Assembly: GCA_030390025.1 (NCBI GenBank)
Contig: CM059431.1
Location: 105,340,001 to 105,404,000, forward strand
Reading direction: 5' to 3'
DNA length: 64,000 nt
Source of the DNA: Squalus acanthias
Taxonomy: Eukaryota
The position numbers and the translations under genes were made by a program. The number at the start of each line of letters is the position of its first letter. Positions within the stretch are counted from its first letter, which is position 1. Below are positions 1 to 50,509 of this stretch, one piece after another. The notes below the pieces were generated by a model. It was not told the origin of the DNA. It searched no databases and was given only the letters and a program-made list of their open reading frames with translations.

Positions 1-929
1 TTCAAAGAAGTCTTCCTGGCAAGGAAAAATGTCTATTCGACCTACAGGCGCGGTCGGGGCTTACTGACCGTGGCGATAAGTATGGTCTTCGTCTCTTCTC
101 ATCTCATCTCATCTCTTCTCGGGCCTTTGGTTCCGATGCCGGTTACCAACACAGGTCTTCGTGACACGACACGAGGTAGATCCGAACGGATCACAAAGTT
201 CAACAGTCTTTTAAAAAAAGACACCAGGCAAACAGGAACAAGACGGCGAGTCAAGAACACAGGAGCAGCCACGAGGATGAACACCAGCAAGATAAGAGAA
301 AGATGGACGGCTGGAGCCTGCAATTATAGTACAAAATCTTCCGTTTCCCGCCCAACCTCAATGTCCCTTCCTTTTGTTAGGGTTTGGCGCTCAAATGTCT
401 TGTATAGGTGATCTCCGGTTTTAATGGGTTTCGGGGCTACTCGTAAATGTCTGAGTACCTGTTAATATTTCTCCCATTGTTTAATCGGTCGGTATTCTCC
501 CTGGAGGGGTTTTGGGGCCTCCAAGTGTTTTCTGTAACTACCCGCTAACGGCTCTCTCATCGTAGAGTCGTTGGGATTTTACATATTAATGTCTTTGGAT
601 GGGTTCTTGATTACTGGGTACAATAGCCTTTATTCGTACCTGGGAGACCGATTCCAGTATCTATGTGTATACTGCAAACCCAAGATGTCTCGTGTATTAT
701 CTTCGATGTGCTGAATCTTAATCGATCTTGCACAAATGTTTATTGGAACGCCATCTTGTCTGCCTGTCGAAAAGTCTAGAATGTTCCGCCACGAGGTGCG
801 GCGGCCATTTTACAAGCTGCTTGTGTCCACTTTGAAACCTGACAGCATTCTGCTGAAATAAAAGCTGTTTGAACGAAACTATGTGTTTTCTCCTTATTAA
901 TAAAATCACGATATATTGCGAATTCTACA
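1..929 (-). repeat. 3' LTR (partial; about 747 bp more expected left of the window)
   Basis: Identical to 11080-12008 except at 206/11285 and 908/11987; begins TGTAGAATTC on minus directly after a purine tract. Confidence 0.95.
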
Positions 930-940
930 GTCCCTCCTGT
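930..940 (-). promoter_or_regulatory. Polypurine tract (plus-strand primer site)
   Basis: Minus ACAGGAGGGAC abuts the TG of the 3' LTR. Confidence 0.8.
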
Positions 941-1376
941 TGATGCGAATAACTCCGCTTATCGTATCAAAAATATTGTGGTGAGCAATATTATCTCGAT
1001 TTTCTCCGAATCCAGAAAATTAATCCCATAACTTAAACTAGCTAGGGTCTTTGTGTCATCCTTATTTCCCAAGAAAATTACATTTTATAGCACCGTAGGC
1101 ATTATTTGCCTTTAAACTTACACCACTTGTTTTCCTTCCAGGCGTAACCAGGCCGATGCCTCTCGTATCACCTGTATATTCATCTTTTATTCAGGGAAAG
1201 GAAAAACAAAACCCAAAACCAAACAATCATTTTTAACTACAACACCATTACCAAAATAATCAACACCAACTCTTAAAACATGTCAAGTTCCAAACGTATT
1301 TACAGTCTTTGAAAATCATGATCGAGTACAAACTTTCGCGGCGCACGTGGCGAGCGGGAGTGACGGCATTTTCCGA

Positions 1377-3729
1377 TCACACGGTGCTTTCATCGTGCAC
1401 GCGCACATAACGTTCTCGCCACTCTCCCGTGTTTTCATGCTTGGTGAGGCGTTTGTCTCTTTTACAATGTACGACCAATAGGTATACTACAATAAAAACT
1501 TGGCATACTACTAAAATGTGGGAGGCTATCCTGATCCATGAAGGTACTTCAATGTTGGTGAACAGATTCCACCACGGTGGAATTACTATATCCAGAATGT
1601 CTGTCCCTCTTTCGACAGTTTTCTGCTCTAATGTGTAAAAATGTTTCTGTGACACCGCGACGGCTTTTAAAAGCTTGGTGAGGTGTTCAGGGAGAGGGGG
1701 AATGAGGTATCCGAAATGCGCGACGAATCGCTGCAAGTCGGTGAAATTCTCTTTTACGGTGAGATGAACCGTGGATGGTTCAGGGATTGGGACAATTCGC
1801 TGTTGTGCTACTTGAACTTCCGCCCGGGGTTTGAAACAGAAACTGCTGTCACTCACCGGACACCGGCTACGGTTTCCATGCTGGTAGTGTCGCGCTGCAG
1901 TGGTAACACAATATGTTCCACCCCCGATGTATGCTACCTGCGGAGGCACATGATCTTGTGCCATTGCCTCCATGGTGCAATTCATGGACTTGGCGCCAGC
2001 CGTTCTGAACCCGCACTGTGGTGTTAAAAAGGCATTCAAGTGCTGGGGACACAGTATTATGTGTGCTCCCCTGCCACGACAACCAGAGAGATCTGTACCT
2101 GTCATCGTTTGCTCCCAGCGGATGACGTAGGGTGGAACCGCTGCATAGCGAATGTGGGCTCCCCCCTGAATGACACCAATGTTCTCTACCCGATACACCG
2201 GGGCGGGCTTTGCTGTGTCGCCCAAAACTGGCATACGTAGTACTATACCCATGATAGTATGGTTTGATCGTCCGCAGTCCACGGGGACTGGGTATGCTTC
2301 TGAAGCTAGCCTGAGCTGGCACGGGCTTAATGCGTTCTGAAAAGGGTGGAGCGCCCGCAGGTGTTTGTTACTTATCCAGGACGGGACCAAACCTTGTTTT
2401 AAATCCTCCAAATTACTGCGGCCCTCGCCCAGTAACCACGCCCCGTAAAGCACGCACACCTCGTTCTGCGCAGCTTGATCGGATGCATTCCGATCTTCCC
2501 TAATCAGGGCATTTACCGTCTTTGCATGTTTCTCTAACTCTGCTATAATTTCCTTTAAATGGAGAGTCATGGCTTGGTCCTCGTGTAAACCCGACCCTAC
2601 CACTTTATTCTCATCTGTTAGAATGTCTTTTAATTGCGTCTTTAAACCATTAATCTGGGTCTGCAGATCCACACTGTCTAGAGCGTTGACCACAGATGTA
2701 CCTGTGTTGAAAGCAGTGAACGCGTCGTTCACTACACCCCTTCTTTGCCTCCCTACTTGATCCAAAACTTCCTGTGGTGCGGTGTACAAACTTGTTTTTA
2801 TCAATTTCCGCGAAATCGAATTCGTAAAATTGTCTGAACATCTTGGTCAACAGGACCTGATACAACTGTTCCGTCTTTTTGGGGCACCACTCTGGTAACC
2901 GTACCTCGGTGAGATTTAAAATCACCGAGGCCACCGCGTAGTGTACCCCCTGGAATAGTATCTGGTCTGTGGGGACCAGTACCAAACCATTCCCGGGTCC
3001 CTTACTAGTTTTAGGGCACCCTTCCTCTTCAGCTGGAACCACCGGAATCGTGGGCGGGGCTTTGCGTGGGCGCGTAATGAGTTCAGTGGCATTTACCGGG
3101 ATCGAAGAGTATGGGGCTCCGCACCCCCTGGTGCTCGCATCCCACCTCATCCCCTGTCCGTTATCCTGCCATTGATTAATGAAGAATATGGATATGCCTT
3201 TGGGGCAAGGGTACTTTGACCCCCACATGCATACATAAATTCCCTCATCCGGTTCCCACCATTTGTCCCAACAGACTCTCACTTGTCCGTTTGTCCCCGT
3301 AATTGTCCGATGGGTATTATTACCCAGTCGTTCCCACTCGACCGAAGAGTTCCTCATGTTTTTGCTCAGCTTTCGCAGCCACCACCATCGGCTCAATGGG
3401 ACATTCCCACTACAAGTCAAACAAATCCGTTTGCCGACGGTGACGCTGATCCTGGGTGCGATGATCCTTACTTTGGGGCACAGTAAAGAAGTCTCTTGGT
3501 AGGCAAACCCCGATGTGCTGGAATACTCCGTTGAGTTCGTTCCCAGCCATCCTGGCCACCTTCCCTTGTGGAAATAGGTGGTGGTCTCCTCAGCCTCCCG
3601 TCTTCCGGTCCCATCCACCGCGATGGGGGCCGTGTCCCCGGAGCATCCAAACACCACGACATCCTTGGTGCGGCCTCGATAGGCCAATCCACATCCGATT
3701 GCCGCGAGCAATACTAGAATTCGTTCCAT
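1377..3729 (-). CDS. env: Envelope glycoprotein, F-type class I fusogen with N-terminal Ig-like domain; ~783 aa after repairing one frameshift near 2795-2799
   Basis: Signal peptide MERILVLLAAIGCGLA (ATG 3729); furin site RQRR (2739-2750) followed by fusion-peptide-like GVVNDAFTAFNTGTSVVNA and heptads LQTQINGLKTQLKDIL; Cys-rich region; TM IASHILVVCQVFIVVYLLVV; short tail. ORFs 2650-3888 and 1377-2804 join if one A is removed from an A5 run. Confidence 0.88.
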
Positions 3730-3742
3730 CCTTCCTTGGTTC

Positions 3743-3765
3743 CTGTGATCAGATAGAATGAGGTA
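3743..3765 (-). promoter_or_regulatory. Putative env splice acceptor
   Basis: Minus CCTCATTCTATCTGATCACAG|GAACCAAGGAAGG-ATG: pyrimidine-rich tract and CAG 13 nt before the env ATG. Confidence 0.6.
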
Positions 3766-4026
3766 GCCAGCCTCGCAAGAGTCTCTGGCTTTTGTGAAGG
3801 GTGAGCGGGTCCCCTGACCTCGCCTCACGTAAACTTCAATGTTCGCTGAATAAACTTTAACTAAACCTATCTCTAAAGCTCCCATCATTTTATCATTTTC
3901 TGTTAAAATTAAACTACAAACTTAACCTTATTTAAAACTATAAACTTATAACCTTAAACTATAAATTTAGAAACCTATCCTAAACTTATTACTGTACAGC
4001 GCCGCCCGTTCCCAGGGCGGCCCCTT

Positions 4027-7000
4027 TTAAATTCTGAGAAGGCTGCTGCGAGCTCTTCCCGACGGTGGGAGGGCTCTGACCTTTTCCTCTGATCTGCCGC
4101 AGCCTGTTGCTGCACTGACCCCTTCCTCTGGGCTGCCGCAGCCTGTAGCTGCTGCTATGGGACCGGGCTGTATCTGGGCTGCCTTAACCTTGAATCTACG
4201 CCTTGGGACAGTCTGGGGCCATACCCACATCTTCCTGGGCTGGGGTTCTCTACTTGACCTACGGGGAGTTGTCGGGGGCAGGAATCCCATGACCGACGGA
4301 CCGGGTTCCGAGACTTCCATCGGGACGACCTGTGGTTCCACCACAGTCGCTGACTCCGCCTCCGCTGACTCCGCCTCCCTAACCTCGGGACTTGCAGCTT
4401 GTGGCTCCGCCCTGCTTGGCCCAGCAGGCGGCCCTTCACTCGCGATCCCTGCCTCCCCCGAGGGTGGGACGTTCAAAGCGGGCGGCTCGGGCTCGGAGGT
4501 TCTCACCGTCACTCCCTGTGTTCCCACAGCGGCTGGCTCCGCCTCCCCTAGCTCCTCCCTCCTGTGTTCGGGACCTGCAGCTTGTGGCTCCGCCCTGTGC
4601 GGATCTCCATCTGCAGTCCGTGTCCTCCCTATACCTAAAATGGGGACGCCCCTTACGTTCCCCAAAACCCACTCGCCTTCATCACTATCCTCATCTGACT
4701 CCCATCCCCACAAAAATGCTTCGTGATCTTCCAGGATGTCTCCTCCCCTGATGCAAGCTGCTTTGCCTGCCTGTGTGCCTTGTGGTCCGACCTGGGGCTG
4801 CGCTCCCCCACTCGCGGGGTTTACCCCTGTGGTTTTCCCTTGCGCACCTGGCTTGTACAGTTTGCACTGGTTTACATGGAACCACTTAGTGCGCCGAGGT
4901 ACCTTTACGGCGTATACCATGGGACTCGCCTTATCTACAATGTTGTAGGGTCCCATATACAGTGGTTCCAGACTCCCTACTCTGGCGTAGTTTCTGACCA
5001 TGACCTGGTCTCCTACTTCCCACTCCCGCGTTTTGCGGGGTTCCAGCAACAGGCGATTGCCCTGATGCTGCCTTCCCATGTTCCCAGCCGCCTGCTCATA
5101 AACCTGCTTCAGGCGCTCCAAGAGGGTCTGGGCGAACTTGTCCCTGCTTATCTCTTGGAGCTGACCCTCAGTGAGCACCGGCGCTAGCACATGGGTGGGG
5201 GTTCGCATGAGCCTCCCAGTCATCACCTCGTGCGGGGAGTACCCCGTACTTTTTGACTGACTGGCCCGGACCCCCATGAGGACTAAAGGCAGAACTTCCG
5301 CCCATTTTTGGGGCGAGTTCCTAGTCTCTTTCCTCAATTTCTCCTTCAGGGTCCGGTTCATGCGTTCAACAATCCCGGATGACTGGGGATTGTGTGCTAC
5401 GTGCCACTTCCCTTCAATGCCCAAAAGCATGAGGGTGTTCTGCATCACCTGGCCGGTGAAATGACTCCCTTGGTCTGACTCCACAAAACGGGGAAGTCCC
5501 CACCGCGAGAACACTTCCCGGACCAAGATTTTTGCAGTACCCAGTGCCGTAGCTGTTCGACAGGGGAAGGCTTCCACCCATTTGGAAAACACATCCACCA
5601 AGACGAGGCAGTATTTATAACCTCCCTGGGTGGTAGGCAGGGGCCCTATGTAGTCGATCTGTATCGACTGCCATGGTCCCTCTACCCTTCTTACGTGTCC
5701 CATGGGCACTTTCCTTTTCTGGGGGTCTGGGTTGTTTGCAGCGCACACAAGACAGTTTGCACAGAACTCGCGGACTTGTTCCCTGAGCCCTGGCCACCAT
5801 CCCGCTTGCTCTACCCGTTGCCAGGTAACCTCGGGCCCGGGGTGCCCTGCCCCTGGTCCCTCGTGAGCCAACTGGAGGAATTCCCTCCTGTGCTGCTGCG
5901 GCACAACCCACTGCTCCTCGCGGAACAGCATGCCTTCCTTAACTGAGAGGGTTGCCGTACTGTACGGACCCTCTACCTGCTTCCCCTCAACAATGGTTTT
6001 TAGGACTGCTTTTAGGGCGGGATCCTGGGTTTGGACGGTCTTAAGGTCCAGGGGCAATGCTACCCTGGAGTTCCCGGGATTCCCGTCCCTGCCTTGGATC
6101 GCTGCCATGGGTCTGGTCCTATAGGGGTCCCAGAAAATGCCGTTGCGGGCACCTTCCCTGGCTAGCGCATCCGCCTGTTGGTTGCCCTCCCCACGGGGCT
6201 CTGTGGAGGAGTGAGCTTTCACCTTATGGATGAAAATCTCCCCTTCCTCCCCTACTGCTGCTAGGATCTTTTCCAGCAAGGGCTTCACCGTTAAAGGTTG
6301 CCCGTCCGCGGAGGTGTATCCACGGCGGGACCAAATGGCCAGGTATTCCGTACACGAATTGCATGTGAACATACTGTCCGAGCAAATCGTGTATGGGGTT
6401 GGGAAAATGTCTGGGTGGGTAACAACGTACACCACGGCAGACAGCTCAGCCTGCTGCGCGCTCATGGTGCTAGGGAGCTTGATCGCCAGGGCAAGGTTTG
6501 CCGCAGGGTCATAAACTCCACACCCTGTGAGTCGTTCGCCAGCAGATACTGTGCTAGACCCATCAACATAAATCTCGCGCCCAGTGGGATGTATCCCGGC
6601 CCGCAAACCTATGTTGACGTCCCACACCCCTTCCACCGAACATCGGTGGGCTGTACCGGGGTATACCAAATTGGCCGCAAGCCTGGGCTCGCAAAGACCT
6701 TTTACTCTAAGATCCATCTGGGAAAGAAGAAGGGTCCAGCGCGCAATACGCCGCTTACGATCCCATCTTTAATCCTCCCATCTAGAAGCATCTTAGTTGG
6801 CTTGTGATGGGTGAGGAGAGTGATGGGAGAGAGCCCTGTGAAGATCGCTGATCTTTTCACAGCCCAATGCGTGGCTAAAAGGTGCCTTTCGCAATTGGAG
6901 AAACTTCTCTCCACATCCGTTAACACCCTGGATGAATAGACAACCGGCCTCAGCTTGCCGTGACGCTCTTGGAGCAGCACAGCGCTCAAGCTGTCCCCGC

Positions 7001-8519
7001 TGGCAGCTACCTCCAGGAAAAACTCCTTCCCCCCATCTATGGCCCCTAAGGCTGGCGCGGTCTGCAGATCCCTTTTTAACTTCTCGAAGGCTGCTTGGCA
7101 GCCCTCGTCCCAAGACCACTCCACTCCCTTATGGAGGAGTCGGAGGAGCGGCGCCGCTGTGGCCGCATAGTCTTCGATAAAATCCCTGCAGTAACCGGTC
7201 AGTCCCAAGAAGGACCTCACACCCCTTATGTTGTTGGGAATCGGTAACTCTTGCACCGACTCCCTCCTAGCTTTGTCTATGGCTCTTTCCCCAGCGCGAA
7301 TGGTCAGTCCCAGGAATTTTACTTCCTGCTGACCGATACGTGCTTTCTTAGGATTTATTTTAAAACCCTTTCTCGCTAGCAGCTCCAATAACTCGTCCAG
7401 CAGTGGTCCATGCTCCTCCCTTGAATCCGTAAATAGGAGCAAATCATCCACGTACTGCACTATCTGATTGGGCTGACTAAACTCCTTTAAACTTCCTGCC
7501 ATACACTGATGGAAAATACTGGGGCTATTGTGGAAACCCTGTGGCAGAAATTTCCATGTGTACTGTTGTCCTTTGAAAGTAAAGGCAAACTTGTACTGGT
7601 CCTCTCGCCGCAGCGGGATAGACCAAAAACCGTTCGAGATATCCAGCACCGTGAACGTGGTCGCGGACGCTGGGATACTCCCTATTAGGTCAGCAACTGC
7701 TGCTACCGTGGGCGCGCAGGCGGGAATGTTACTGTTAAGGACTCTGTAGTCCACCGTGGCCCTCCACGAATTATCCGGCTTCCTAACCGGCCATAATGGG
7801 GAGTTCACGTGTGTGGCTATCGGCCTCAACACGCCCTGTTGCACCAAGGAGGACATTGCTGTCTCCATATCGGGTTCTGCTTCTTTGGGGAAGTTATACT
7901 GCTTTTGGGGCCGGGTCATGGGGTCCCCATCTACGCTGACCTCAAACCCGGTAACCCTCCCACAATCGTGCTTGTGGGTGGCAAACGCGTGCATGTTATC
8001 TGACACGTACGTTTGCATGTCCGTTGGGACATCTGCGACCATAAGCCCGAGGTCGTAGCCTCCGGATGGCTGCATGGTACACAGGACCCCTGTTTCTTCC
8101 TCCCCCGGAATTACCACTACCTCGCCTTTTTCACTCTTAGCCCCCCAGAGACAGTGATTTCTGAGGTCCACGAGGATCCCGTGTCCTGATAGGAGATCGG
8201 ACCCGAGGATACCTCTTCCACCCCCCTCCTGCCATTCCATCAGTATGCACTTCCACTTGATGTGAAGTGCTCCCAAACGAATGGATAGCGGAAGGGAGAA
8301 CGCGCCAGCCTGTTCTTTTCCCGTGAACCCCGCTAGTGTGAATGGGACCTTGGTAGATAGCGGCGAGTCAAAAGGGCTATCTGTATGAATTACGGTGCAA
8401 GAAGCTCCCGTGTCCAACAAATAACTACCCTTCTGTTTCTCTACCTCCATCTCCACCAAAGGTCGCTTCCACGCATCATAGCTGAGCGGACACAGGTAGA
8501 CGGGCTGCGCGGGCTCTAG
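4027..8519 (-). CDS. pol: Pol polyprotein: protease, reverse transcriptase, degenerate RNase H (tether), active RNase H, integrase, C-terminal extension; one frameshift near 6750
   Basis: LLDTGAS; LDISNGFW, LPQGFHNSP, YVDDLL; tether FFLEVAAS...LLTHH; RNase H IYVDGS/AQQAEL/CSDS/HKVKAH/GNQQAD; IN HEGPGAGH...CLVC, IQIDYIGP, ESDQGSHF, GIVERMN, GPY. ORFs 6702-8459 and 4027-6717 join as ...GIVS/RIARWTLLLSQMD. Confidence 0.95.
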
Positions 8520-8522
8520 TCA
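8516..8522 (-). promoter_or_regulatory. gag stop codon in TGA-CTAG readthrough context, in frame with pol
   Basis: Minus CAA TGA CTA GAG CCC; the same frame stays open into the protease (8519 to 8459 is 60 nt). Confidence 0.75.
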
Positions 8523-10328
8523 TTGGGTACTATTAGACGGTCCTGCGGCACCTACGGGGCCGGTAGCAACCGCCACCTTTCCATGTGCACTCAATAATTT
8601 GCGCATGGCTCCCAACACTGATTCGAGGTCGTCGGGAGGGGTGGGTGCACTAGCTTCCCTAGCAGGGACAGGCGTCTGGGCTCGGGCTGCGGGAATTTTA
8701 TCCCTGGAATCCTTCCAAGGGTTCCTGCAGTTCTTGCGCCAGTGCCCTGTCTTCCCACACCCGTAACAAGCATTACTTGCCTGCGGGGCGCGATTACCCT
8801 CCTGATGCCACTCCCTTTGATACGGGGCTGCGGGTCGTACCTCATGTACTTTTCCCTTAAGGGGACGTGTTCCCATACCCCTTATATTGCGATATCCTAA
8901 CGTGAGTCGATTCAATACCGACTCTTCCGTAATGTTGGGGTCATTGGGATCAAACCATGCTTTTGCCTGCTCTCTGACGGCTGGTAAACTGTTGGCTACT
9001 ATGCACCTAAGCCAATGATTTAAACCGGCGCCGTCCATATCGTCGCGCTCTAGCGCACCTAGACAGCTGCGCTGATATACTGGCCACAGCCTGTCGGCAA
9101 AAACCTTCAGGGGTTCTCCCTCCATCTGCACTGTCTGTCCCACTCTAGCAAACGGACCTTCATCGTCCGCCCCCAACACTTCCAGGACCTCATTCTTTAA
9201 TGCCTCATAAGTCTTGGTTCCCCTCTTGCTCTCGTTCGAGAGACACTGAAGGATTGAACTGCCTAACGAAAATAACAGCATTTTTGCTGTTTCCCCATCA
9301 TCGCAGCCGTTGATAGCTGCGGTTTGCTCAATTTCTCTGAAATGTACGGAAGGGTCGTCTAACTCGGTCAGCTTCCGTACGTGATTTATCATAACTCTCA
9401 GCTGGTGTGAGCTGTGAGGCAACACAAGCTGGCCGAGGAGATCCCCTGGTTCCTCCCCACCGTTTCTGTTTGGGCCCCTTTTTATACCCGTTACTGGATA
9501 CAACGGTCCCTTTTCCACTTCTTTCTCAATGGGCTCTTTTGTTTCTTCTACTACTTCCTCCCTTACCCAGGTTTCCGAATAGCTGGGTGGCGCGGAGGGC
9601 GCAGTGGCTAATACTTCCTCTGCTTTACTTGGTGGGGACTTCTGAAACTCCTCTTTTACTAGCGGCTGGGGTGCTGACGGACTGATAAGGCACACCATGC
9701 CGTGCGCTTTGTTCACGGCCTTTTTGAGGTGCTCTATCTCTTTTTGGCAGGCGCTATGATCGGCCCCCTGAAACTTATCCTCAAGGGCCAACTTATATGC
9801 CGCCCTAACCCCCGTTAAGCTCTCTTCCTGAGTTCTTATCTGGGCAGCTTGGCGGGCACATCGTTCCTTTAGTCTGCCCTCACTTAACTTTGCCTCAGTG
9901 ACCTGACACTCGAGGTAATCTATCCTTGTTTTATGGTGACTGGAGATTTCCTGGCTTTCTTGGTGCAACGCACTTAAATTCCTAATGAGCAATTCCCCTC
10001 CAGAGACCTTCTCATCCATTTCTCCCTCTAAATGACTGATTCGAGCTGTTAGCGCTGTAATGACCTGGTTTGAAATCTGGACCTGCCTTTTGTAACACAT
10101 TAGCCAGACTGCTTTCTCGATTGTCTTTTTATGTTCCTTACTATCTGTCCACCTTTCGGCTGCCTCTAGTGGACTCTTATCCGCTAACAATTCACTTATC
10201 CATTTCTTAGTTAGATTAACCTTTCCGAACACATAATCTGCTATCTTTTCCTGCATAACATTTCGTACAGTCACACCAAAGTCTAACACACTACCCTCTC
10301 GCTGCCAGTGTCCTGCCGCGGTCGCCAT
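8520..10328 (-). CDS. gag: Gag polyprotein, 602 aa from the first ATG (alternative ATG at 10256)
   Basis: Intact ORF; N-terminal coiled-coil-like region; PSAP (9669-9680) and PSAPPSY (9579-9599); MHR-like QMEGEPLKVFADRL; zinc knuckle CYGCGKTGHWRKNC (8727-8768). Confidence 0.92.
   Translation of the reverse strand: MATAAGHWQREGSVLDFGVTVRNVMQEKIADYVFGKVNLTKKWISELLADKSPLEAAERWTDSKEHKKTIEKAVWLMCYKRQVQISNQVITALTARISHLEGEMDEKVSGGELLIRNLSALHQESQEISSHHKTRIDYLECQVTEAKLSEGRLKERCARQAAQIRTQEESLTGVRAAYKLALEDKFQGADHSACQKEIEHLKKAVNKAHGMVCLISPSAPQPLVKEEFQKSPPSKAEEVLATAPSAPPSYSETWVREEVVEETKEPIEKEVEKGPLYPVTGIKRGPNRNGGEEPGDLLGQLVLPHSSHQLRVMINHVRKLTELDDPSVHFREIEQTAAINGCDDGETAKMLLFSLGSSILQCLSNESKRGTKTYEALKNEVLEVLGADDEGPFARVGQTVQMEGEPLKVFADRLWPVYQRSCLGALERDDMDGAGLNHWLRCIVANSLPAVREQAKAWFDPNDPNITEESVLNRLTLGYRNIRGMGTRPLKGKVHEVRPAAPYQREWHQEGNRAPQASNACYGCGKTGHWRKNCRNPWKDSRDKIPAARAQTPVPAREASAPTPPDDLESVLGAMRKLLSAHGKVAVATGPVGAAGPSNSTQ
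10310..10327 (-). promoter_or_regulatory. Primer binding site, tRNA-Arg(TCG) type
   Basis: Minus TGGCGACCGCGGCAGGAC, complementary to GTCCTGCCGCGGTCG-CCA, the 3' end of a vertebrate tRNA-Arg-TCG as I recall it; follows the LTR end CCCTTACA after a 5-nt GAAAA spacer. Confidence 0.85.
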
Positions 10329-10577
10329 TTTCTGTAAGGGTTTGCGAGCGTGTCTCTCAGCCTGTGAGATTCGTGTGGCTCTGTGCAGCCTGTATGTCAG
10401 TGCGGGTTTAGGCCTTGTTGCCTGTTCTGGTCTCCAGCCAGTCTGGGAACACTAGACACACCTGTGAGTGGTTCGAATCACTCGCCCTTACGGTTCTAGA
10501 CACTGGACTTAGATGCGAGAGCAGTAATGGAGATGAAACTCATGTAGACTCGGTTGAATGGTACGAAATGGAAAATC

Positions 10578-10583
10578 TTTATT
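10578..10583 (-). terminator. Putative LTR polyadenylation signal AATAAA
   Basis: The only AATAAA I found downstream of the TATA-like box, ~245 nt from the LTR end; two others lie upstream at 11708 and 11818. Confidence 0.5.
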
Positions 10584-11401
10584 GCATAATGTTTAAGATT
10601 ACGAAATACATGTCATAAGCACAGATTAATGACAGTACAATCTTACACGCAGTTATGTAACTAATTCTAGGGAAACGAGGAACGAACGACACACCGTAAA
10701 TGGGGGCACACATTACAATTATCCTTAGTACTTAAACCCTCCCCTATCAATATCTGTCCTAGCTAGATTCGTAGGATTCGAGACTCATGCTCACCACTCG
10801 TGATAACTCGGAGAAATTCCGAATAGCTGATCGGATGTTTTCACCGCAGCACCCACGTGTCGATCAGGGGGTCTCCTGGCCCCACTTGTTTACTTGCTTC
10901 TGCTCCGGCTAGCAGGCTGGAACGTCTGTTGTTATGAAGATCTGTGTTTGTGGGTTTCACGTACCAGTCAACACTTAAGAGAATAATCTCTCGGTGTTCA
11001 TCATGAGGATCTGCCCTGATGGGTTTCACAGACCAGTCAATACCTCAAAGAAGAATCTTCCGGGGTCCGTTCTTTAAAGTTCAAAGAAGTCTTCCTGGCA
11101 AGGAAAAATGTCTATTCGACCTACAGGCGCGGTCGGGGCTTACTGACCGTGGCGATAAGTATGGTCTTCGTCTCTTCTCATCTCATCTCATCTCTTCTCG
11201 GGCCTTTGGTTCCGATGCCGGTTACCAACACAGGTCTTCGTGACACGACACGAGGTAGATCCGAACGGATCACAAAGTTCAACAATCTTTTAAAAAAAGA
11301 CACCAGGCAAACAGGAACAAGACGGCGAGTCAAGAACACAGGAGCAGCCACGAGGATGAACACCAGCAAGATAAGAGAAAGATGGACGGCTGGAGCCTGC
11401 A

Positions 11402-11435
11402 ATTATAGTACAAAATCTTCCGTTTCCCGCCCAAC
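11402..11435 (-). promoter_or_regulatory. Putative LTR core promoter (GGGCGG box plus TATAAT)
   Basis: Minus TTGGGCGGGAAACGG...TACTATAATT followed by a pyrimidine-rich stretch; same motif at 323-356. Confidence 0.45.
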
Positions 11436-12008
11436 CTCAATGTCCCTTCCTTTTGTTAGGGTTTGGCGCTCAAATGTCTTGTATAGGTGATCTCCGGTTT
11501 TAATGGGTTTCGGGGCTACTCGTAAATGTCTGAGTACCTGTTAATATTTCTCCCATTGTTTAATCGGTCGGTATTCTCCCTGGAGGGGTTTTGGGGCCTC
11601 CAAGTGTTTTCTGTAACTACCCGCTAACGGCTCTCTCATCGTAGAGTCGTTGGGATTTTACATATTAATGTCTTTGGATGGGTTCTTGATTACTGGGTAC
11701 AATAGCCTTTATTCGTACCTGGGAGACCGATTCCAGTATCTATGTGTATACTGCAAACCCAAGATGTCTCGTGTATTATCTTCGATGTGCTGAATCTTAA
11801 TCGATCTTGCACAAATGTTTATTGGAACGCCATCTTGTCTGCCTGTCGAAAAGTCTAGAATGTTCCGCCACGAGGTGCGGCGGCCATTTTACAAGCTGCT
11901 TGTGTCCACTTTGAAACCTGACAGCATTCTGCTGAAATAAAAGCTGTTTGAACGAAACTATGTGTTTTCTCCTTATTAATAAAATCGCGATATATTGCGA
12001 ATTCTACA

Positions 12009-48380: not shown

Positions 48381-50509
48381 TTATCTAAATTCTTTAACAC
48401 ATATATACAACAGTACCCTCTTTACAGTGCCTTTTCCTAATCTACTGCTTCTACATAGTGTCTCCCCAATGGCTGCAGCAGGGCTGGTGGAAGGCTGCTG
48501 AGTGTCAGTGCCAGAAACTACAGATGGCCTTGCAGGATGCCCTCGACCAACTCTGGGCCTGGGAGGCCCGGCTGTAGACTGCACCACCTCAGCATGGGTG
48601 GCGGCAGTCTGGCCTGGCTGGATGACAGGCAGCGACAAGTGCAATGGCGGAGTGGCAGTGGTGGGATCAGGAATGCTGTCATCCTGAGAGAGGTCAGCAG
48701 GTTCCTGCTCCATTGACCCACTCCCACTCCCCCGGGGCAGCACCTCAGCATCCCTACCAATCTGCTGCAGCACAGATTGGTGGCCTGCTGTGACACCATG
48801 AGATCCCGGTGGACTATGGTGGGCCCAGCGACGATGACAGTAGTCAGATCTTTCGTGGCATCCAGTTGAGACTGCATGAGAGCAGTCTGAGATTCAATGC
48901 CACCAACCATTGACTGCATTACAGCACTAAGACGTTGCGGGGCATCCAGCTGAGACTGCATGAGAGCAGTCTGAGACTCGATGGCAGCAACCATTGTCTG
49001 CATTACAGCACTAAGACATTGTGGGGCATCCAGCTGAGACTGCATGAGAGCAGTCTGAGATTCAATGCCACCAACCATTGACTGCATTACAGCACTAAGA
49101 CATTGCGGGGCATCCAGCTGAGACTGCATGAGAGCAGTCTGAGACTCGATGGCAGCAACCATTGTCTGCATTACAGCACTAAGATGTTGCGTGGCTTCCG
49201 CCTGTGCTGCAATGGAAGCTGCCACATCACCCATGACACATGTCATGAGGTTTGGATCCGCACGGTCTCTCTGGGCGTCCAGCATTCTCTGCAGAGTGGA
49301 AATGATGGACTCCATGGTGTGCACAGAGTCTTGTGCAATGTTGGAGACGGACTCCTCCACGCTCCTTACCATTGCCAAGAGGCTCTCGGGCACCCTTGCC
49401 ATTGCACCTATCATCTCGGAGTGCATGCCCATCACCCTTCTTGTGAACGCCTCCCCATCGTGGTCGTCATCTGAGTCGTGTGCAGCAGAACTCGCCCTCC
49501 GGTGAGCTGGCTCCCAAGCTACCCTTTCCCCTTGGCCTTGCTGCAGCCCGCTCGTCCCTGGTGTATCACCCAATGCAGACCCCTCTACTAAACTTGCCTC
49601 TAAAGATCGCCGAGTGCCAGGATCTGAGCTGTTGCCTGCGGGTGAGAGATGCAGTGACGTGGTGCTTTGCTCCTCCTCCTCTTCTCCTTCCTCACTCTCA
49701 GTGGGAGGCTCAGGGACAGGCTGGTCAGCTGGTTGCTGATTCTCTGAAAGCCACAAGACCCGCGTTAAGGTGAGGGCAGGGGGGCAGGAATGGAGCAAGG
49801 AATGCAGACAGTATCAGGAGCTGGAAATTGAGAAAGGATTGTGGTGTGAGGGGGAAGTGGGATGAGAGAAGGAGAGGGGATTAACATACGGTTGTTGCCC
49901 TCAAGGGGGTCGACGTTGCCAATGGCCATGGCGCCCACCACCTGCTGCCCAATGAGTCGCAGCACTCGCTCCTCAAGGTCTGAGAGCTGCTGGAGCTGCG
50001 CATCACCCCCGCCTGTTCTCTGCTGCTCCCTCCTATTGGGGGCCATCTTGGCCTGCAAGAGAAACGAATGTGTGTGAGTCAGAGCCCAGCTATGTGTTTG
50101 GGAGATATGCCTGCTGTAGTTGAATAGCTGTGATTGTAGGCACGGCATGAGATGTGGATGTGAGTTTGAGTGGGTGCAGATGCTTGGTGAGTGAGTGGTG
50201 GGGGTGTGGTGGATTGTGCAGTGTGTACAGACTGAGGTTCGGATGCTGGTAGGACCTGTTGAAGCACATACTCACCCTGACCACCCGAGTGAGGTCGTTG
50301 AATTACTTCCGTCAGTGTGTCAGGCTGCGTTCCACCATACTACTGGCTGAGACCTCCTGGGCCACTTCCTTCCACATTGCCCTGAAGACCTGGGGCAATG
50401 GCTTCCTTCCAGTGTCCGGGAATAGCACTGCCCTCCTTTGCTCCCCTCCCGTGACCAATGCCTCGTCAATGAAATGACGAGCTCTCTGCTTGGGAGTGGG
50501 AGCAGCCAT
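48381..50509 (-). pseudogene. Harbinger Myb/SANT-like DNA-binding protein gene, three exons
   Basis: RARHF...RRAVLF...MWKEVAQEV..R..RK.FNDL (with stops); GT-AG introns 50275-50053 and 49889-49744 keep the frame; RTGGG motif in exon 2. Confidence 0.8.
48857..49192 (-). repeat. 4 x 84-bp coding tandem repeat (28 aa, alternating A/B units)
   Basis: GGCATCCAG recurs at 48857, 48941, 49025 and 49109. Confidence 0.92.

Follow-up and report, generated by a model that had tools for sequence, protein, structure and literature searches.

We have analyzed a window of 64,000 nucleotides from the shark Squalus acanthias (assembly GCA_030390025.1, contig CM059431.1, positions 105,340,001 to 105,404,000). 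Positions 1–12008 of this window contain a young endogenous retrovirus (ERV) on the minus strand, with the order long terminal repeat (LTR)-gag-pol-env. Our subject is its env gene, in particular a segment near the N-terminus of the protein which resembles a V-type immunoglobulin (Ig) domain. All the coordinates given below for the provirus refer to the minus strand.

The provirus and its env gene

The two LTRs are 99.8% identical (927 of 929 bases, 1–929 compared with 11080–12008). The 3' LTR (1–929) is clipped by the start of the window. The 5' LTR (10440–12008) has its outer end at 12008 and an AATAAA signal near 10577; its inner end is approximate, and a drop in contig depth below about 10428 is only a weak guide to it. 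The gag gene (8520–10328) is an open frame of 602 codons in the list of open reading frames, with a CCHC zinc knuckle near its C-terminus; Pfam recognizes no family in it at E 0.001 or below. The pol gene (4027–8450) is found in two frames, one for protease, reverse transcriptase (RT) and tether (6702–8450), the other for RNase H and integrase, followed by a long low-complexity tail (4027–6717). Pfam recognizes RVT_1, RT_RNaseH_2, RNase_H, Integrase_H2C2 and rve in it. RT_RNaseH_2 is thus accompanied by a second RNase_H, the arrangement known as dual RNase H, which is shared by retroviruses and lokiretroviruses.

According to the open reading frames and their translation, env (1377–3888, stop codon at 1377–1379) is divided in two frames, A (2650–3888) and B (1377–2846), which overlap around 2650–2846. 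The cause is a one-base frameshift in a short homopolymer near codon 366 (2791–2795). What had been described as a single fusion protein is therefore two frames in this copy. We number Env residues from the first ATG, at 3888. Since the sequence upstream of Met54 is not conserved in a second env family of the same genome, the likely true start is Met54, at 3729.

A hydrophobic stretch after Met54 is the likely signal peptide (residues 54–72, 3673–3729). It is followed by a conserved segment (residues 73–136, 3481–3672) with one cysteine and one N-glycosylation sequon, kept in the homologues from skate, sawshark and whale shark, where the AlphaFold confidence (predicted local distance difference test, pLDDT) is below 50. 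The V-type Ig-like domain comes next (residues 137–242, 3163–3480), then a linker (residues 243–290, 3019–3162) with C256, a sequon at N266, the basic cluster RPRK (273–276) and a proline-rich stretch. Cluster and linker are thus found where they had been described, ahead of the F2-like segment. This segment begins at C291 with CPKTSKGPGNGLVL (2751–3018) and is the one interrupted by the frameshift. Its motif (residues 297–304) lies 224 residues past the signal peptide, and the N-terminal extension before F2 has about 220 residues.

The furin-type cleavage site RQRR (2739–2750) is aligned with RHRR, RQRR and RIKR in homologues. RPRK might have been a second site of cleavage, but its basic pair is replaced by RI or RT in the skate copies, and we have discarded this possibility. 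The F1-like ectodomain (1539–2738) contains a fusion peptide, G-V-V-N-D-A-F..., which begins at 2738 directly after RQRR, a heptad region, a cysteine-rich body with ten cysteines and a membrane-proximal heptad region; the heptad regions have been judged by eye. The membrane anchor (1467–1538) has its best 19-residue hydropathy window, 2.55, at frame-B residue 440, and a short cytoplasmic tail (1380–1466) ends the protein.

The Ig-like segment

The first-pass annotation, made from the sequence alone, had noted an Ig-like domain at 3175–3477. This corresponds to residues 138–238 of Env, or about 85–185 when counted from Met54, as was done there. All the motifs quoted in it are present, in the order and place described. 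The domain probably extends beyond that span, to about residue 242 (3163).

The core cysteines are C159, in the LTC of strand B, and C220, in the DEGIYVC of strand F. They are 61 residues apart, a spacing within the range of about 55–75 expected for V-type domains. Strand C has a run of three tryptophans (W168–170), 9–11 residues after C159, and D214-E-G-I-Y-V-C220 is the D-x-G-x-Y-x-C motif of strand F. The W, G, Y and C of these hallmarks are invariant in eight diverse homologues, and C159 is kept in seven of them, being F in one degenerate copy. Considering homologues of 45–71% identity, the residues of the Ig pattern are invariant or nearly so. The domain also contains four additional conserved cysteines (137, 156, 206 and 228) and two sequons (N180 and N190).

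Profile searches point in the same direction. A piece of 111–116 residues from the window gives Pfam Ig_3 at E 0.012–0.017 (16–16.5 bits). This family matches seven of 11 homologues in the same register, down to 45% identity and with a best E of 0.0011, and it is the only Pfam family found in more than one of these 11 members. The recurrence of the match in the same register indicates that the pattern is more than chance. A Pfam search with V-set and I-set profiles had been proposed as a check; the Ig signal did appear, always under the 30-bit cut-off. A phmmer search against the Protein Data Bank (PDB) gives 11 sub-significant matches (E 0.25–0.8): ten are Ig chains, of JAM and antibodies, and the eleventh corresponds to another region.

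Structure prediction was the second check proposed. We have obtained two AlphaFold models. The first, residues 57–365 with 16 aligned sequences, has a mean pLDDT of 43.8 and a predicted template modelling score (pTM) of 0.34; the second, residues 130–245 alone with 11 sequences, has 56.7 and 0.48. Both have eight strands in the segment. Seven of the eight strands assigned by the first-pass annotation appear in both models; strand A is not predicted as a strand, and there is an extra C' strand. The Foldseek lists of both models against PDB consist almost wholly of V domains (antibody VL and VH, nanobodies, CD8 alpha, shark IgNAR V, NITR, embigin), all at E 0.008 or weaker. Model confidence is low, however, and none of these matches reaches E 0.001. 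The same is true of the search in BFVD, the library of viral structures, where the second-best match is the cytomegalovirus protein UL6, at E 0.011.

Structural alignment with VIA-align against 48,161 representative chains places first the secretory-component chain of secretory IgA (7jg2; Z 5.5, root mean square deviation (rmsd) 3.2, 91 residues aligned), followed by FcmuR (Z 5.1), pIgR domain 2 (Z 5.1) and TREM-1 (Z 4.9). These top four have rmsd 3.1–3.5 over 84–91 residues. A second look adds a VHH (Z 5.5, rmsd 3.0, 88 residues aligned) and shark IgNAR V (Z 5.1). In the ESM Atlas, the named clusters shown for the segment are the ig, I-set and V-set families, with scores of 0.92–0.93.

As a whole, the segment is similar to V-set domains (pIgR, FcmuR, TREM-1/2, NKp44, IgNAR, antibody V), with Z 4.1–5.5 and rmsd 3.0–3.8 over 81–91 residues, and it shares with V-set receptor domains the Cys-Trp-DxGxYxC hallmarks. 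It differs from them in its identity of only 10–20%, in the lack of a Pfam match above the cut-off, in its four additional conserved cysteines and in the WWW run of strand C. Each of the fold tests is weak, but all of them agree: a V-type Ig-like domain is the best reading of the segment, and it is probable that its fold is Ig-like.

The F-type part of Env

The rest of Env has the layout of an F-type class I fusion protein: multibasic site, fusion peptide, heptad region, cysteine-rich body, second heptad region and C-terminal anchor. Judging by these elements, it appears to be a protein of this class. In the ESM Atlas, the neighbours of F2 plus F1 which carry a family name are Gypsy, Baculo_F or Fusion_gly, with scores of 0.94–0.96 and 205–215 shared features.

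Sequence searches with this part give little. The F1 frame has one chance match in PDB by phmmer (E 1.2). Residues 300–847 of an intact Env find only three relatives, all of them ERV-derived or chimeric gene models. The family profile of the F part finds only Niban 2 in PDB, a match which we have discounted, because a chimeric gene model (P0005) had contaminated the alignment.

The F proteins of paramyxoviruses and pneumoviruses (PF00523) have the same F2, furin site, fusion peptide, two heptad regions, cysteine-rich body and C-terminal anchor, with no significant sequence match to the shark Env. Paramyxovirus F has no N-terminal extension and works with a separate attachment protein. It does have an Ig-like domain of its own, domain II; since it is found inside F1, not before F2, it is a different element from the Ig-like domain of the shark protein.

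The best language-model neighbours of F2 plus F1 are the Env of insect errantiviruses and the F protein of baculoviruses (Gypsy PF07253, Baculo_F PF12259). Errantiviruses also resemble our provirus in having a fusion protein as the sole env of a retroelement, but their F-type Env is found in invertebrate Ty3/gypsy elements. The available versions of the eLife study on errantivirus Env name no Ig or receptor-binding domain and report no vertebrate counterparts: "immunoglobulin" and "Ig-like" do not occur in the preprint version, nor do "receptor-binding" and "additional domain" in the eLife version.

Copies, selection and host range

The N-terminal frame of env, compared with the genome of S. 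acanthias (3.7 Gb), gives 101 scored matches from 11,338 first-look candidates. At least 27 of them belong to an uninterrupted reading frame whose length is exactly 847 codons, and the 15 copies of this env type which we have fetched are all a single open frame of 847 codons from stop to stop. A second env family, B, has 123 scored matches of 7,496 candidates and the same architecture, including the Ig-like segment. A third set, similar to a distant sawshark Env (P0013), has 7,013 first-look candidates; the three sets may overlap.

Comparing one copy of the first family, A, with three copies of family B (three comparisons), F1 is the most conserved part of Env: 79–80% amino acid identity, a nonsynonymous divergence (dN) of 0.12 and a dN/dS of about 0.06, the synonymous divergence (dS) of about 2.1–2.2 being near saturation. 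The linker is the least constrained part (49% identity, dN 0.38, dS 0.8, dN/dS 0.44–0.48). Residues 73–136 have 52–55% identity, dN 0.35–0.39 and dN/dS 0.14–0.19. The Ig segment has 63–64% identity and dN 0.24, with a dS either above 2 or not computable by saturation. Such conservation, when synonymous sites are saturated, shows that the segment has been held by strong purifying selection over a long divergence.

Conservation is not uniform inside the domain. In the eight diverse homologues the predicted strands are more conserved than the loops (0.82 compared with 0.67), and variation clusters, by eye, in the BC, C-C' and FG loops.

Homologues are found in the skate Rhinoraja longicauda, the sawshark Pristiophorus japonicus and the whale shark Rhincodon typus, mostly as fragments or chimeric gene models. 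Several gene models (P0004, P0005 and P0014 in sawshark, P0006 in skate) join pieces of env to host genes, whose parts are zinc-finger, Niban-1-like and cadherin-related. These chimeras are probably annotation artefacts of ERV insertions, some of them may be real chimeric transcripts.

The frameshift of the window copy is not an isolated case: the same length variant is found in 13 of 47 other copies compared, a share biased upward because 30 of the 47 were picked by similarity to the broken frame. Several of these copies keep both frames open. In contigs from four public runs the other homopolymer length prevails at position 2795, and no splice joint for an env mRNA is seen in them. Two of these runs, presumed to be RNA, have a higher contig depth over env and LTR, which according to the tool is not usable as a measure of expression. 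The recurrence of the variant could be due to repeated changes in the length of the homopolymer or to amplification of copies with a defective env.

The broken env and the recurrence of its variant would be expected if the family now spread as an intragenomic retrotransposon, with env as a decaying relic and the domain irrelevant. The numbers of first-look candidates (11,338 and 7,496) also suggest intragenomic amplification. On the other hand, the frames of 847 codons remain open in every fetched copy, the Ig segment has kept its identity between families in spite of saturated synonymous sites, and both sharks and a skate have kept the domain. We consider this explanation very improbable.

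Comparison with lokiretroviruses

Lokiretroviruses offer the closest comparison for the general layout (Wang and Han 2020, PMC7947760). Both are LTR-gag-pol-env proviruses whose pol has a dual RNase H. The Env proteins share a signal peptide, a basic cleavage site, a fusion peptide, a coiled-coil region and a membrane anchor, and show no similarity to classical retroviral Env. The order of the elements, by eye, and the F2 motif GPxxG(I/L/V)(V/A/M/I/L)(L/F/V) are also the same. The differences lie in the fusion peptide and F1, which are strongly different in the shark Env, and in the extension of 220 residues with the Ig-like domain ahead of F2. In addition, Pfam PF00523 matched Loki-Str in the published study and has no match in the shark Env.

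The supplement of that study contains 23 consensus lokiretrovirus Env proteins. We have examined 21, one of which is a C-terminal fragment, so that 20 are informative. In all 20 the F2 motif is found, by eye, within about 15 residues past the signal peptide, and the basic cleavage site lies about 100 residues into the protein. None of the 20 has the extension. The N-terminal module is thus lineage-specific and not a general feature of this kind of Env. The words "immunoglobulin" and "Ig-like" do not occur in the text of the paper.

A similar conclusion is suggested by the distant sawshark Env, P0013. Its alignment with our family profile begins at F2 (hhalign probability 97%, E 9e-11), with nothing ahead of it, and a Pfam search of P0013 gives no Ig match. 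The P0013-like copies in the genome of S. acanthias match P0013 almost only from residue 140 on. This third set, sharing just F2 and F1, may carry a different N-terminal module. The N-terminal module thus varies between lineages, with a fusion core in common.

By its genome layout, the shark provirus is a candidate lokiretrovirus. As we read the columns of the published screen table, it included three Orectolobiformes (Chondrichthyes) genomes, none of them positive, with the whale shark in the genome list (PMC7947760). This result speaks for a separate or overlooked lineage.

These comparisons also bear on another possible role for the domain. It might regulate fusion, as a prefusion cap or clamp or as an aid to folding or trimer formation, attachment being either non-specific or a task of residues 73–136. 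The constraint on this segment equals that on the Ig part, and no role has been assigned to it. It is also well established that paramyxovirus F is triggered by a partner protein. The 20 published lokiretrovirus Env proteins, however, work without the extension, which implies that the F core needs no cap. A regulatory domain seems quite improbable to us.

Origin of the domain

The first-pass annotation had interpreted the segment as an Ig domain captured from the host. A phmmer search with the 412-residue frame against 1.84 billion representative proteins gives only 12 hits. Nine of them are this same env, in some cases within chimeric gene models, two are distant envs which match in F2 only, and the last one is a bacterial repeat protein. 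A separate search for longer relatives of the N-terminal frame found none. The bacterial protein (P0011), a beta-helix repeat protein of 5014 residues, has E 5e-11 against Env residues 74–141. We have rejected it, as its score is summed over 16 stretches and corresponds to a low-complexity repeat match.

No cellular Ig protein is returned by this search of 1.84 billion representatives, and the closest host Ig proteins, which the annotation had proposed to look for, are not detectable by sequence. The domain may have been captured from a host, in that case long ago, but it cannot be traced to any donor. The other elements of that interpretation, a V-type Ig-like domain which is N-terminal to an F2-like part and absent from published relatives, are in agreement with our results.

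The nearest case in the literature searched is a crocodilian ERV (PMC4299795), whose env has been replaced by a captured nectin-3 gene with about 76% identity to the donor. Both ERVs thus have an Ig-superfamily sequence under purifying selection. In the crocodilian ERV it is a whole recognizable host gene, while in the shark provirus it is a single, highly diverged domain fused in-frame into a working env.

Possible role of the domain

Our interpretation is that the shark provirus codes for an F-type Env with an extension of about 220 residues, and that the V-type Ig-like domain in this extension serves attachment. We assign to it a probability of roughly 0.55. Cleavage by furin at RQRR would produce an N-terminal subunit of about 310 residues, extending from the conserved segment through Ig-like domain and linker to F2, with five sequons and ten cysteines. 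This subunit would remain attached to F1 and act as a surface (SU-like) subunit. We infer that the N-terminal piece is linked to F1 and the Ig-like domain exposed. Paramyxoviruses supply attachment by a separate protein; a retrovirus has only its env gene for this purpose, and here the Ig-like domain would provide it. Other viruses combine a fusion machine with an N-terminal binding module: the receptor-binding domain of gammaretrovirus SU has an Ig-like core, and the N-terminal domain of the coronavirus spike is galectin-like. From its position, its conservation under selection and this analogy, the chances that the domain is a receptor-binding module appear to us evenly balanced.

Several results weigh against this interpretation. 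Regarding the fold, no Pfam Ig match reaches the cut-off of 30 bits in any of the 11 members (the best is below 20 bits), the N-terminal family profile finds no PDB chain at E 1 or better, both AlphaFold models are of low confidence, Foldseek gives nothing at E 0.001 or better against PDB, and the best VIA-align Z is 5.5, in a range (below 8) where, according to the tool, a match may mean just a common arrangement. Regarding the F part, its ESM recognition value is 1817, under the 2300 line of the tool, and no Fusion_gly, Baculo_F or Gypsy is found at E 1 or better in either env frame of the window, an intact copy, the second family or P0013. A search of the whole genome with PF00523 gave no match; as the filter was stricter and the controls were also silent, it is uninformative. 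Finally, saturation of dS means that the dN/dS of the Ig segment is bounded, not measured.

These sub-threshold scores (Pfam below 20 of 30 bits, Foldseek E of 0.008 or more, Z of 5.5 or less, a blank PDB profile), together with the unusual WWW run in strand C and the four extra cysteines, could mean that a beta-rich domain resembles Ig by chance, being some other sandwich or a fold without relatives with its own conserved cysteines and tryptophans. We regard this as unlikely. Independent methods converge on the same superfamily and register, the cysteine of strand B, the tryptophan of strand C and the DxGxYxC motif are all conserved at canonical spacing, and the structural alignments span 81–91 of about 94 residues.

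The domain could also be Ig-like and act as an immune decoy or shield, as the first-pass annotation had suggested in addition to attachment: a mimic of a host molecule, a ligand of inhibitory receptors or a cover which protects the fusion head from antibodies. Ig-like proteins are used by other viruses for immune modulation. The position of UL6, a membrane protein, as second-best in the viral library is consistent with such a role, as are the sequons N180 and N190 if taken as glycosylated. Nevertheless, no cellular protein is close enough to be mimicked, and a retrovirus with a single env still needs attachment, for which no other candidate module has been recognized. A constrained framework with variable loops fits a binding domain, yet does not separate both roles. 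On balance we find a decoy rather improbable.

A domain of this kind on a retroviral Env of F type is not described in the literature searched, which covers lokiretroviruses, elasmobranch and fish ERVs and class I fusogens, most of it in part. The first-pass annotation likewise did not know of this architecture. In a broader and more tentative view, which we consider somewhat doubtful, the provirus represents a shark and ray retrovirus lineage undescribed in that literature, in which an F-type fusogen acquired a V-type Ig domain long ago, so that a single protein came to provide both attachment and fusion. The lineage would be abundant and perhaps still mobile, since the LTRs are 99.8% alike and many env frames are open.

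F-type fusogens are otherwise known with a separate attachment protein, as in paramyxoviruses, or as a bare fusogen in retroelements. If an Env of this type has its own Ig-like module, held by selection, it would reveal a route to receptor specificity; if the broader view is true, it would be a natural example of an F-like fusogen which has gained such specificity with no partner. In that case a binding site which diversifies between virus families would be formed by the variable BC, C-C' and FG loops. A domain of about 105 residues, which could be expressed alone, would provide a handle on the receptor of an ancient fish retrovirus lineage. The results also indicate a large group of retroviruses with F-type env in cartilaginous fishes, which had no positives in the original lokiretrovirus screen (PMC7947760). 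Such a group is relevant to the debate on where retroviral env genes came from.

Other observations

The first 200 residues, approximately, of gag resemble by eye a long coiled coil. A similar coiled-coil piece is joined to the N-terminus of env in a whale-shark gene model (P0010). An SMC-like gene has been reported in some lokiretroviruses (PMC7947760).

The tail of pol (4027–4900) extends about 270 residues beyond the integrase and an SH3-like domain and ends just before env. It is G+C-rich and of low complexity, rich in proline, alanine and glutamic acid, with repeated units of the AEPQAA type.

Pfam searches of the six other long open frames of the window gave no match. An open frame of 431 codons at 48518–49813, also on the minus strand, has no Pfam family. 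It lies in a G+C-rich stretch and contains a unit of about 29 residues repeated four times in tandem (QTALMQSQLDAPQ.LSAVMQ.MV..IES).

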